A DNA stretch of 64,000 nucleotides from a bacterium (GCA_022072165.1 JAJVIF010000004.1:79667-143666), one strand, 5' to 3'. Positions 21,478 through 28,439 are shown, numbered from the stretch's first letter. Numbers and translations are program-made. Notes: generated by a model from the sequence alone, not told the origin.

Positions 21478-21554
21478 GGGCACTTAGCTCAGTTGGTTAG
21501 AGCGCTACCTTCACACGGTAGAGGTCACAGGTTCGAATCCTGTAGTGCCCACCA
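21478..21554 (+). tRNA. tRNA-Val (anticodon CAC)
   Basis: Cloverleaf folded by hand: acceptor GGGCACT/AGTGCCC, D-stem GCTC/GAGC, anticodon stem CTACC/GGTAG with loop TTCACAC, T-stem ACAGG/CCTGT with loop TTCGAAT, discriminator A and encoded CCA. Confidence 0.9.
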
Positions 21555-21647
21555 TGCTGTTTTTAATGGATGCTGCTGCCCTGGGGCTCAGCTTTGCTAC
21601 ACTCCCTGAGCTTGCAGTAACCCGGAGCCCGCAGGAGGCCCCTCGCT

Positions 21648-22529
21648 TTGGCAACGCTACGCGCCATCAAGAACCGCATCCGGTCGGTCACCAACATCCG
21701 CCAGATCACCAAGGCTATGGAAACGGTGTCGGCCACTAAGCTCCGACGCGCCCAGTCGCGGGCGGAGCAGGGTGCCCCCTACGCCGACAAGATGGGCGAA
21801 ATCCTGGCGAATCTCGTGGCCAGCCTCCCCAAAGGGACCCAGGTCCAGCATCCGCTGATGGAAGTCCGCAGCGAGGTGAAGACGGTCTGCCTCGCCGTCG
21901 TGGCATCAGACAAGGGGCTCTGTGGCTCCTTCAACACCAACGTGGCCCGCGTGGTCAAGCAGGAAGCCGCCCAGTGGGAAGCCCAGGGCGTGAAAGTCCT
22001 GATTCTCCCCATCGGCAAGAAGATGCGGGAAGTCTTCAAGCGCGACCCCCGGGTGATCGAGGGCTACGCCAATCTCGACCAGACCATTCCGTTTAGCGAA
22101 CTGAAAATGATCACGGACCGTCTCACCGGACTCTTCACCTCCGGCGATGTGGATCGTGTGGACTTCATCTTCACCCGCTTCATCAATGCGGCGGTCCAGC
22201 GGGTGGTCTCTGAGCCTTTCCTCCCCCTGAGCCGGGTCTCGGCAGATGATGCTGGCGGGACAAAGGAACGGGACTATGTTTTCGAGCCGGATCCCCAGAC
22301 GCTGTTCGTAAGTCTGCTGCCGGCCTATGCCCGGGTGAAGGTCTTCTTTGTGCTGGCGCAGAACTATGCGTCGGAACATGCGGCCCGTATGGTGAGCATG
22401 AAGAACGCCACCGACAACGCATCGGACCTGATCAAGAATCTGACCCTGCAGCGCAACAAGGCGCGTCAGGCCGCGATCACCAAGGAACTCTCGGAAATTG
22501 TCGGCGGCGCGGAGGCCCTGAAGGGCTAG
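21648..22529 (+). CDS. atpG: F-type ATP synthase gamma subunit
   Basis: (M)ATLRAIKNRIRSVTNIRQITKAMETVSATKLRRAQ... is characteristic of AtpG; TTG start preceded by AGGAGG. Confidence 0.9.
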   Translation: MATLRAIKNRIRSVTNIRQITKAMETVSATKLRRAQSRAEQGAPYADKMGEILANLVASLPKGTQVQHPLMEVRSEVKTVCLAVVASDKGLCGSFNTNVARVVKQEAAQWEAQGVKVLILPIGKKMREVFKRDPRVIEGYANLDQTIPFSELKMITDRLTGLFTSGDVDRVDFIFTRFINAAVQRVVSEPFLPLSRVSADDAGGTKERDYVFEPDPQTLFVSLLPAYARVKVFFVLAQNYASEHAARMVSMKNATDNASDLIKNLTLQRNKARQAAITKELSEIVGGAEALKG

Positions 22530-24193
22530 ACGCTAACCCCGCGTCGACGCTGCATTCTCAGGACCTGCTGCTGTCGCGCGCTTCGGGCGCGCTGCATGAT
22601 GCGCGCGGCAGGAGCCCCGGCAACCCACCCGACTCCCGTGCGTCCGAGATCGCTGAGGATCTCGTCCGCTGCCATCGCGCCGGTGAGTGCGCCCCCTTCC
22701 ATGTAGCCCTGGAAATCGACACTGCAATGCTCGCCGCAGAAGTGGACATTTTCGAAGCGCTCGATCTCCAGCCCCGAAATGGTGCTGTACTGCCCTGGCC
22801 GATAGGCGCTGTAGGAGCCCCGGGTGAGGGGATTCCCCGGCCAGTATTCACGCAGGACCGTCCCGGTGCTCTCATCCGTGAGGCCATTGAAGACTGGCTC
22901 CAGTTGCGCCAGACAGGCCGCCTGGGCCTGCGCGACTGCAATCTGACCAATGGCGACAGCCGGTGCGCCGCCGGTGTAGTTGGTGAGGATGCCCGCCGTG
23001 CCGGGCTGCAGCCGGCTCGTGTCCCAGGTGCACTGATACCCGGCATCCGAATAGGTTTCACCCGTCGCGCCCTGGTCGCGCCAGAGTCGTGACGCAAACC
23101 CCATCATCAGCTTCGTGTTTTGGCCATAAGCCAGGTCGCGAATGGCCGCGACTTTCTCCGGCGGGAAGGCGAGGAAGTTCTCGACCGACCGCAGCACACT
23201 GAAGGGGATGGCCAGGACCACATGCTCGACGGAAACGACGAGAGTCGAGGTACCCGGCCGCTCGAAGAAACAGCGGGTCCGGCCATCGGCCCGGCGGTCC
23301 AGCGCGACCAGACGGGCTCCCAGGGTGATTTGCCCGTCCTGTAACCCCTCGGCAAGTCGCTGCGGGAACTGGTCGTTGCCCTCCGTGGCATGGAAGCGTT
23401 CATCGGATTCTCCGAAGAGGCTGAGCTCTGTGGTGTCCGTGCCGACGAGGTAAATGAGATTCAGGCAGTTGGTGTCATTGGCATCGAGCCCGTACTCGAT
23501 GACATACGCCACTTCCAGCAGCTTGCGGATGGGTCCGGATGCGCCGACTTCATCGAGCCACTCGCTGAGGGACAGGGCGTCGAGACGGGCGAAGCCCGCA
23601 TCGGTCTCCGCCTCGGCGTATGCGTCCTCGATACTGGCTGCCAGTGGTGCGAACGCCAGCAGGAGTTCATCCGGTGTCTGAATGGCGTTGTTGAAGTACG
23701 CCGTGAAGGGGGTGAGATCCTCGGGATCCGTGTCGAAGTCCGTGAGGGCGATGCCGAGTTCCTGCGCCAGATCGAGCATAGTCTCGTGGCCCGAGTCGAT
23801 GAACTCACCCCCCCGTTCGCAGACCAGCCCGGCGAACGTGGAGCGGTCGGACCACATCCGTCCGCCGATCCGCTCGCTCGCTTCGTAGACCTGGGCGATG
23901 ACACCCGCCTGCCGCAGGCGATAGGCGCAGTGGAGACCAGCGATGCCGGCCCCGATCACAATCACGGACTGTTCGATATTGGTGTAGGTAGCCCCAGTCC
24001 CTTCGCTCGTGGCACATCCGGCACCGAAGAACGCGCCAGCGCCCAGCGCGAGGCCGGTCTGCAGGATCTGACGACGCGGGAGGATGGGTCCGTGGTCGTC
24101 GGCGGTGGCCTGGCTTGTGGCTGGAGCCTTTGCTGCCAATTTCAGAAGCTGGGTGAGGCGTCGGAATAGCGCGGTATGTGCCATGGGCGGCAT
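22526..24193 (-). CDS. flavin-containing amine oxidase family protein with twin-arginine (Tat) signal
   Basis: Tat-like PRRQILQTGLALGAGAFFGA; FAD-binding VIVIGAGIAGLHCAYRL...YEASERIGGR; 4-bp convergent overlap with atpG stop. Confidence 0.75.
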   Translation of the reverse strand: MPPMAHTALFRRLTQLLKLAAKAPATSQATADDHGPILPRRQILQTGLALGAGAFFGAGCATSEGTGATYTNIEQSVIVIGAGIAGLHCAYRLRQAGVIAQVYEASERIGGRMWSDRSTFAGLVCERGGEFIDSGHETMLDLAQELGIALTDFDTDPEDLTPFTAYFNNAIQTPDELLLAFAPLAASIEDAYAEAETDAGFARLDALSLSEWLDEVGASGPIRKLLEVAYVIEYGLDANDTNCLNLIYLVGTDTTELSLFGESDERFHATEGNDQFPQRLAEGLQDGQITLGARLVALDRRADGRTRCFFERPGTSTLVVSVEHVVLAIPFSVLRSVENFLAFPPEKVAAIRDLAYGQNTKLMMGFASRLWRDQGATGETYSDAGYQCTWDTSRLQPGTAGILTNYTGGAPAVAIGQIAVAQAQAACLAQLEPVFNGLTDESTGTVLREYWPGNPLTRGSYSAYRPGQYSTISGLEIERFENVHFCGEHCSVDFQGYMEGGALTGAMAADEILSDLGRTGVGWVAGAPAARIMQRARSARQQQVLRMQRRRGVSV

Positions 24194-24230
24194 TCTAGCC
24201 CGTCCGGTCCACCCGGTACACTGGTGCGTC

Positions 24231-26753: not shown

Positions 26754-26978
26754 CGCCCCATTATTGCAGAAATCAACTGAAAAGTGCAATGCACAAGGCG
26801 TTCATTGCACTTTTCCTCAACCAGGGGGCAACGAGAAGAAGTGACGCTGGGGGGGCCAGCCCCTCGATTTTCCCACCACCCTGCCCTAGAATGGCCCGTT
26901 AGCGAACGCCCCACCGGGCGTTCCCTTTGTGCGCGACTGACCAGGTCGCATCGCTTGTCCACGGACGGAGGTCCGCCC

Positions 26979-28379
26979 ATGCCCGGTGTCGGGAAAGTCA
27001 CCCAGGTTATCGGCCCGACGGTCGACTGCCAGTTCGCTTCGGATCAGCTCCCGGCGCTCCTGAACGCCCTGACGATTCAGGACGAGGCCCGGGGGATCCG
27101 CCTCACGGTCGAGGTGGCCCAGCACCTGGGCAACGACGCGGTCCGGTGTGTCTCCATGGGTCCCACCGACGGACTCGTCCGCGGAATGCCCGCCATGGAC
27201 ACCGGCGCGCCCATCACCGTGCCGGTCGGCGATCTGACCCTCGGACGCATTTTCAATGTCCTGGGCGAGCCCATCGATGGGGCTGGCCCGGTGCCGACGG
27301 ACATCCACCGGATGCCGATTCACCGCGACCCGCCACCCCTCACCGACCAGTCCTCGACCATCGAGCAGTTCGAGACAGGCCTGAAAGTGGTCGACCTCCT
27401 GACCCCCTATGCGAAGGGGGGCAAGATCGGCCTCTTCGGCGGCGCGGGTGTGGGGAAGACCGTCCTTATCCAGGAGCTCATCAACAACATCGCGCAGCAG
27501 CATGGTGGACGCTCGGTCTTTGCGGGCGTGGGTGAGCGGACCCGCGAGGGGAACGACCTCTTCCTGGAAATGACCGAGTCCGGGGTGATCAGCAAGACCA
27601 CGCTGGTCTTCGGGCAGATGAACGAGCCGCCGGGCGCCCGCCTCCGGGTGGGACTCACGGGCCTCACCATGGCGGAGTACTTCCGCGACTCTGAAGGGGC
27701 GGACATCCTCCTCTTCATCGACAACATTTTCCGCTTCGTCCAGGCCGGGTCCGAGGTCTCCGCGCTGCTGGGTCGTATGCCCTCCGCTGTGGGGTACCAG
27801 CCGACCCTCGCCACAGAGGTAGGCGCGCTCCAGGAGCGGATCACCTCCACGGTCCGCGGGTCGATCACCTCGATTCAGGCGATCTATGTCCCCGCCGACG
27901 ACCTCACTGACCCCGCCGTGGCCACCACCTTCGCGCACCTGGATGCCACCACCGTGCTCAGCCGCCAGATCGCCGAGCTTGGCATCTACCCGGCCGTGGA
28001 TCCACTGGACTCCTCCAGCCGCATCCTCGACCCGCTGGTCATCGGCGAGCGCCACTACGGCATCGCCCGGCAGGTCCAGGGGATTCTGCAGCGCTACAAG
28101 AGCCTGCAGGACATCATCGCCATCCTCGGCATGGACGAGCTCTCCGAAGAGGACAAAGTGGTGGTGGGGCGCGCCCGCCGCATCCAGCGCTTCCTCTCGC
28201 AGCCGTTCAATGTCGCCGAGCAGTTCACCGGCTTCAAGGGGAAGTACGTCACCCTCCCCGAGACGCTGGACTCTTTCGACGAGATTCTCTCCGGCAAGCA
28301 CGACCATCTGCCCGAGAACGCCTTCTACATGCGGGGCGGGATCGAGGATGTGGTCGAGGCTGCGAAGTCGATGAGCTAG
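26979..28379 (+). CDS. atpD: F-type ATP synthase beta subunit
   Basis: Walker [23 protein letters not shown] motif ([13 protein letters not shown]); ATG at 26979 with GGACGGAGG RBS. Confidence 0.95.
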
Positions 28380-28405
28380 CAGGCGCGCCGGATCAAGCTT
28401 TGAAG

Positions 28406-28439
28406 CGACGGGACTCCAGCGGGTCCCGTCGTTTTTTTG
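28406..28439 (+). terminator. rho-independent terminator after atpD
   Basis: GACGGGAC-TCCAGCGG-GTCCCGTC followed by GTTTTTTTG. Confidence 0.75.

Follow-up and report, generated by a model that had tools for sequence, protein, structure and literature searches.

Break-up of the operon that encodes the F1Fo ATP synthase is already known from prokaryotic genomes. A survey of atp loci across prokaryotes (Koumandou & Kossida 2014) lists further splits in Aquificae and Beggiatoa at the beta|epsilon and alpha|gamma junctions, describes separations down to four open reading frames (ORFs), and concludes that a split between any subunits is tolerated (PMC4154653). The gamma gene of Synechococcus 6716 forms a cluster by itself (PMC11124002). 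Here, we analyse a stretch of 64,000 nt of bacterial DNA (GCA_022072165.1 JAJVIF010000004.1:79667-143666; hereafter the window, with positions counted from its first letter) in which atpG, for the F1 gamma subunit (MCG3153273.1), and atpD, for the F1 beta subunit (MCG3153278.1), are set apart from each other and from all other ATP synthase genes. An earlier note on this DNA, made from the sequence alone, had pointed to the arrangement and offered either a fragmented operon or the insertion of an accessory block as its cause. Our results indicate that the F1Fo cluster has probably been broken at alpha|gamma, gamma|beta and beta|epsilon in a small, uncultured and unclassified diderm lineage, in which atpG and atpD are maintained as separate housekeeping units.

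Results

Canonical atpG and atpD without partner genes in the window

The atpG product matches PF00231 over its full length (314.9 bits), and the atpD translation contains a Walker A (GGAGVGKT) and a DELSEED motif. For atpD, the ATG at 26979, which follows a GGAGG, was taken as the start instead of the ORF start at 26784, which leaves 4,449 nt between the two genes. Four unrelated genes occupy this interval, namely a flavin amine oxidase gene, an orphan gene that we call hyp287, a small lipoprotein gene and a Fic/DOC-family gene (coordinates in Table 1). Neither Pfam scans of ~48 ORFs nor tblastn with two reference subunit sets found atpA, atpB, atpC, atpE, atpF or atpH in the 64-kb window. 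The cluster is thus interrupted at alpha|gamma, with no atpA 5' of atpG, at gamma|beta, with four ORFs in between, and at beta|epsilon, with a terminator and no atpC after atpD. The earlier note had read most of this layout correctly: the spacing of 4.4 kb agrees with the value obtained after the start correction, and the lack of flanking ATP synthase genes extends over the whole window. ARAGORN, Rfam, TIGRFAM and Pfam likewise confirmed that atpG directly follows tRNA-Val and an FmdB-like gene, with no atpA upstream, all four genes described in the interval (with the amine oxidase convergent and bearing a twin-arginine translocation (Tat) signal) were recovered, and the terminator scan and tblastn agreed with a strong terminator and no atpC behind atpD.

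Solitary F1 genes of this kind might be spare or specialised paralogues, belonging to an N-type ATPase or to another machine, with a normal operon elsewhere in the genome. That no partner genes lie nearby, and that the search was confined to the window, would fit such an origin. However, both products score far above the canonical equivalog cut-offs (TIGR01146 and TIGR01039) and below those of the alternate F1Fo models (gamma, TIGR03323, 79 bits against 282.35; beta, TIGR03305, 599 against 752), and beta also stays below the cut-offs of further alternate or F1-like models (510 bits against 850 and 409 against 570). The N-type locus, B-E-I-R-0A-0C-0B-A-G, moreover has gamma after alpha, unlike the arrangement seen here (PMC4154653). 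The two genes also show the strongest codon bias in the window (37 genes), atpG combining high codon adaptation with a GC content at third codon positions (GC3) of 0.81 and atpD reaching the window maximum of 0.88. Across species at ~91% nucleotide identity, they are 99% identical, while neighbouring genes are 87-96% identical. Such conservation together with the codon bias fits essential, highly expressed genes, and we regard a paralogue origin as improbable.

Solitary atpG in close relatives and a contiguous cluster in the outgroup

A protein search with atpG returned a handful of relatives at 75-100% identity, beyond which identity drops to 54% or less; a scan of genome contigs with atpG produced only matches of 37-44% from many phyla, dominated by universal gamma motifs, and no close relatives. 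The gene order of the window recurs at 99-100% amino acid identity in seven sequencing runs, whose contigs were assembled independently. Two sister species (L091 and L093, ~91-92% nucleotide identity) carry, in the same order, the FmdB gene, tRNA-Val, atpG, the amine oxidase, hyp287, the lipoprotein and atpD. Since the source is a metagenome-assembled genome, the separation might in principle reflect a chimeric contig or a binning error. Yet the seven runs span the atpG-atpD interval or parts of it in the same order, as do the two further species, and an assembly artefact is vanishingly unlikely because these independent assemblies agree.

Four upstream contexts of atpG were found among the relatives. 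Within the genus of the window (atpG 99-100% identical), atpG is preceded by the FmdB gene and tRNA-Val and followed by the amine oxidase, hyp287, the lipoprotein, the Fic gene (variable) and atpD. In L083 (84%), toxin-antitoxin-like small ORFs lie upstream, and repeat elements, a hyp287 homologue and a lipoprotein fragment lie downstream. L099 (78%) has two small paralogous ORFs upstream and a hyp287-like gene downstream, and L082 (75%) has nuclease and ion-channel genes upstream and a terminator followed by a convergent flhB-like gene downstream. In none of these relatives, with atpG 75-100% identical, does atpA precede atpG. The FmdB gene, 99-100% conserved in contigs L085-L093, is an upstream neighbour of atpG in the window genus only and does not occupy this position in L082, L083 or L099. 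Similarly, L091 has tRNA-Val, which is missing from the vicinity of atpG in L082, L083, L084 and L099.

The nearest outgroup (L084, L097 and L098; atpG 52-54% identical) carries atpI-B-E-F-H-[~275 aa]-A-[~970 aa]-G-D-C on one strand. Since this cluster is contiguous, the scattered state is derived. Fragmentation of the operon in this lineage, as proposed in the earlier note, is supported by the solitary atpG of all relatives at 75-100% identity, by the absence of atpC after atpD in L095 (see below) and by the contiguous outgroup. In addition, L091 and L093 share the split and the intervening genes, the very pattern that the note had named as the mark of an ancestral fragmented organisation rather than an insertion.

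Several features of the outgroup cluster are recorded here in their own right. The ~275-aa ORF between atpH and atpA (L084 4560-5408; L097/L098 ~4534-5373) and the ~970-aa ORF between atpA and atpG (L084 7080-9977; L097/L098 ~7061-9997) are conserved and have no Pfam family, and the outgroup beta subunit (554-560 aa; L084 11018-12682, L097 10945-12627) contains an insertion of ~90 aa relative to that of the window. A 961-aa ORF and a 262-aa ORF of the window, as well as hyp287, were considered as homologues of the intercalated ORFs and rejected, as comparison found no homology. P0132, at first sight a close atpD relative, was likewise discarded: it comes from a Firmicute whose operon is normal and whose beta gene is elongated.

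Putative expression signals of atpG and atpD

The atpG gene starts with TTG and has AGGAGG 9 nt upstream. A motif, CTTTGCTACACTC..GCTTG, is found ~45-55 nt before the start and is kept in all four sub-lineages despite unrelated upstream genes, its version in L082 being TGCTAGAAT. It resembles an extended -10 promoter and would function as such. Because the motif is retained although all upstream genes differ, atpG was presumably already transcribed on its own in the common ancestor of these lineages. At its 3' end, atpG meets the convergent amine oxidase gene with overlapping stop codons.

On the atpD side, the ~125 nt 5' of the gene hardly vary between the window, L091 and L093, while the sequence just upstream of this promoter-like region differs between species because of the state of the Fic gene. 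The leader of ~85 nt contains two hairpins and a GGAGG ribosome-binding site. The same upstream region is recognisable in L095 (atpD 92% identical), where the second hairpin stays paired in spite of changes in both of its arms, although the fold is not exceptional (z = -1.25). With its own upstream region and terminator, atpD appears monocistronic and would be expressed as such. No atpC was found after atpD in L095, the only relative with a visible downstream side of atpD. That side carries a lipoprotein gene, paralogues of the 961-aa ORF of the window and a homologue of its 262-aa ORF (53% identity), and synteny downstream of atpD is therefore conserved; upstream, non-coding repeats precede atpD in L095. 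Rfam reported nothing above threshold except tRNA-Val.

A palindrome at 26779-26815 (GAAAAGTGCAAT...ATTGCACTTTTC), upstream of the atpD promoter-like region, is kept in L091 (alignment columns ~245-285), and a similar one lies upstream of atpD in L095 (~30-70). It may represent an operator or a former terminator of the gene before it.

Further observations concern the surroundings of the two genes in the window and in the relatives. The ~650 nt past the atpD terminator (28440-29090) hold no convincing gene and gave only sub-threshold chance matches in Rfam; they include a C-run/G-run hairpin (~28625-28660) and a 27-nt inverted repeat (28859-28885/28973-28999, 93% complementary). The 961-aa ORF that lies further 3' of atpD (29930-32815) has no Pfam family and shows a faint hint of beta-propeller repeats (SBBP). 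Its family is expanded in the L083/L095 relative, with three tandem paralogues at 33-59% identity (copies at L095 2749-5592, 6610-9366 and 9420-11869, and at L083 2-898). In the same relative, palindromic repeat elements, each with two direct copies and one inverted copy, fill the spacers beside atpG in L083 (3380-3610) and beside atpD in L095 (60-260); they coincide with contig ends and have probably split the assembly into an atpG side and an atpD side.

A heterogeneous interval between atpG and atpD

Table 1. Features of the atpG-atpD locus, with positions in the window
Feature	Position	Strand	Evidence and remarks
FmdB-type zinc-ribbon gene	21139-21435	+	PF09723 above cut-off; TIGR02605 41.8 bits, cut-off 31.3
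tRNA-Val(CAC)	21478-21554	+	ARAGORN; Rfam 75.6 bits; 93 nt 5' of atpG
Promoter-like motif CTTTGCTACACTCCCTGAGCTTG	21592-21614	+	extended -10-like TGCTACACT at 21595-21603
atpG, F1 gamma, 293 aa	21648-22529	+	TIGR01146 309 bits, cut-off 194.45, residues 1-291/293
Flavin amine oxidase	22526-24193	-	PF01593 200 bits; convergent with atpG
hyp287 orphan gene	24231-25094	+	no Pfam or NCBIfam match
Small lipoprotein	~25117-25608	+	MTTR... start, lipobox LVAAC; directly 3' of hyp287
Fic/DOC-family gene (Fic_N + Fic)	25605-26672	-	PF02661 75.8 bits, PF13784 73.8 bits
Palindrome with 16-nt arms GAAAAGTGCAATGCAC/GTTCATTGCACTTTTC	26779-26815	.	repeat search; between Fic and atpD promoter-like region
atpD promoter-like region and leader	26856-26978	+	TCGATTTTC...TAGAAT (26887-26892), two hairpins, GGAGG
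atpD, F1 beta, 466 aa	26979-28379	+	TIGR01039 815.5 bits, cut-off 462.85, full length
Intrinsic terminator	28402-28435, T-run to 28445	+	15-pair stem, then TTTTTTTG; terminator scan, also visible in the sequence

The four genes of the interval differ in their distribution. The amine oxidase, which displays a twin-arginine motif (PRRQIL) and a hydrophobic stretch, is 95-100% identical in L085-L093, and in the window genus it fills exactly the spacer between atpG and hyp287. The corresponding spacer of L083 lacks it, as does the DNA downstream of atpG in L099, and no remnant was seen in either. The gene is probably a later addition to the block, a polarity inferred by parsimony.

The orphan gene hyp287 reaches further. 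A homologue with 54% identity follows atpG in L083, and in L099 a gene 78 nt past atpG matches the hyp287 profile over its first 111 residues (hhalign 97.6%, E 4.7e-12). Judging by this shared gene order, hyp287, which is the downstream partner of atpG in three of the four sub-lineages, is an old member of the block. Family members were found in this clade only, as three clusters in a set of 5.8 billion proteins and as two in one of 1.84 billion representatives (HMMER), and a scan of metagenome contigs with the hyp287 alignment found L083 again and nothing else. No match was obtained in Pfam (E<=10) or with a PDB sequence profile. The protein, in which conserved motifs include QRVLNQQSLVMKRDAHG and SASDHHHPA, is predicted to be all-helical and cytoplasmic. 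Its AlphaFold model has a mean predicted local distance difference test (pLDDT) score of 56 and is usable for residues 1-118, and Foldseek against the PDB returned nothing.

The persistence of hyp287 next to atpG raises the idea that its product serves the ATP synthase, for instance in assembly or regulation specific to this lineage and possibly together with the lipoprotein, and that selection holds the gene in its position. Same-strand adjacency to atpG indeed persists while hyp287 falls to 28-54% identity and everything upstream changes; in addition, the protein has strongly conserved motifs and the atp cluster of the outgroup also contains conserved unknown ORFs. Nevertheless, hyp287 resembles neither known ATP synthase subunits and assembly factors nor the intercalated ORFs of the outgroup, the atpG of L082 does without it, and atpG and hyp287 of the window genus, having a convergent gene between them, need not be co-transcribed. 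As the structural model is poor and the fold search was empty, and as adjacency within a narrow clade may be mere inheritance, we find such a link unlikely. If hyp287 was tied to F1, the interval from atpG to atpD would represent a remodelled and not merely eroded ATP synthase locus.

The small lipoprotein is 93-100% identical in L085-L093 and its gene is documented in the window genus only. In L083, a 37-residue N-terminal fragment (MTTR start, lipobox) that was matched by eye only follows hyp287 and is a possible counterpart. The most variable gene of the block is the Fic gene. In the window, its product has an intact Fic motif, HPFLDGNGRTGR, which satisfies HxFx(D/E)GNGRxxR, and an inhibitory motif, SSRIEG, and it remains below the SoFic equivalog cut-off (199 bits against 550). 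The gene is full length in L085-L090. L091 retains an internally deleted and strongly diverged remnant (~13960-14330), with only residues 1-140 (59% identity) and 366-394 left, and in L093, where the gene is absent, ~300 nt of unrelated sequence (6494-6804) take its place. The Fic gene is, as these comparisons suggest, a variable accessory gene, apparently caught during loss between sister species. Its GC3 is the lowest in the block (0.71) and its codon usage is at the low end of the window range.

Could these four genes have arrived as a recent genomic island between once-adjacent atpG and atpD, perhaps through an attachment site at tRNA-Val? A tRNA gene 93 nt 5' of atpG, the frequent mobility of Fic genes, and a Fic gene that has the lowest GC3 of the block and varies between species would all be in line with such an event. 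However, tRNA-Val is located upstream of atpG and not at the border of the block, the 25-nt 3' end of the tRNA gene is single-copy in the 64 kb even when three mismatches are allowed, and no flanking direct repeats were found. The role of the tRNA as an integration hotspot, suggested in the earlier note, consequently finds no support, while its remark that no integrase is visible was confirmed: no integrase or recombinase domain was detected in the ORFs between 19707 and 29883 or in the other scanned ORFs of the window, and no transposase domain in the block. The comparison of GC content and codon usage that the note had recommended revealed no deviation either, the block (GC3 0.71-0.79) falling inside the window range (0.71-0.88, 37 genes), as do its codon-usage scores. 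The block is also common to species at ~91% nucleotide identity, and hyp287-family genes follow atpG even in relatives at 78-84% that have no amine oxidase. Finally, the block never comes or goes as a whole, hyp287 and the lipoprotein being present in all species of the window genus while the amine oxidase and Fic vary independently. A single recent insertion is therefore very unlikely, L091 and L093 sharing the split, and what stands of the proposed accessory block is a piecemeal turnover of the amine oxidase and Fic genes.

Other features of the window

Three loci of the window that are remote from the atp genes are also worth recording. The region 42977-46029 on the minus strand has the lowest GC content of the window (0.54-0.60 against ~0.64) and contains four consecutive ORFs (381, 180, 348 and 171 aa) without a Pfam family; it may be acquired DNA. 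In a 1063-aa UvrD/PcrA-type helicase (4331-7522), the C-terminal helicase domain encloses an RNase_T (DEDD exonuclease) domain (residues 663-819). In the 562-aa ORF at 50651-52339, a GrpE domain is restricted to residues 144-296, which corresponds either to a long extension or to an over-long ORF call.

Discussion

The comparisons favour a derived break-up of the F1Fo cluster, in which atpG and atpD have become separate housekeeping units. Identities, layout and conservation of the genes and their polarity relative to the outgroup are shown by the data; from these, a mechanism can be sketched. Expression of atpG would be driven from the conserved extended -10-type motif in combination with a strong ribosome-binding site, and atpD would carry its own conserved promoter-like region, structured leader and strong terminator. 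With the two genes in separate units, each would have a promoter and translation signals of its own to determine subunit ratios, in place of operon coupling. The interval would have been assembled piecemeal, from an old hyp287, a later amine oxidase and a variable Fic gene, and the amine oxidase may have entered a space that no longer needed to be transcribed through. The remaining subunit genes would be located elsewhere in the same genome.

Several points weigh against this interpretation. First, atpA, atpB, atpC, atpE, atpF and atpH were not located by a search that covered the 64-kb window only, out of a contig of 270,950 bp, and a second, complete operon may exist elsewhere. Second, a simple sigma-70 scan flagged neither the atpG nor the atpD promoter motif. 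Third, most of the relatives are short contigs, and L083, which shows the atpG side, is linked to L095, which shows the atpD side, only by their common metagenome. Lastly, the choice between gain of the amine oxidase in the window genus and its loss in L083 and L099 was settled by parsimony alone.

If break-up is the correct reading, one more uncultured, unclassified lineage manages without a contiguous atp operon. The locus offers a small-scale picture of erosion, in which genes first acquire their own promoters and terminators, after which orphan and accessory genes come and go. It also calls for caution in annotation: where atpG or atpD turns up by itself in this clade, this should not be taken as a sign that the ATP synthase is missing or incomplete.

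Compared with described systems, the closest atpG outside the clade is that of the outgroup represented by L084, L097 and L098, whose cluster also holds unknown ORFs; unlike in the window, its subunit genes are all together on one strand and its intercalated ORFs are unrelated to those found here. The best parallel for the breaks themselves is provided by Aquificae (Aquifex aeolicus) and Beggiatoa, where canonical gamma and beta genes are each detached from their usual neighbours by splits at gamma|beta, beta|epsilon and alpha|gamma (PMC4154653). The differences are that the lineage of the window is unclassified and that its gamma and beta genes stay ~4.4 kb (four ORFs) apart. A few unrelated ORFs between parts of an atp locus are likewise seen in the short-range splits of Geobacter sp., although the split reported for delta-proteobacteria is 0C|0B whereas that of the window is gamma|beta (PMC4154653). 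In cyanobacterial atp clusters, gamma and beta belong to separate transcription units (PMC11124002), as they would in the window, but the cyanobacterial beta gene stays with epsilon while atpD of the window has no atpC after it. The window is thus a new example, in an unclassified lineage, of an operon break-up that is already known and, in this respect, an ordinary finding.

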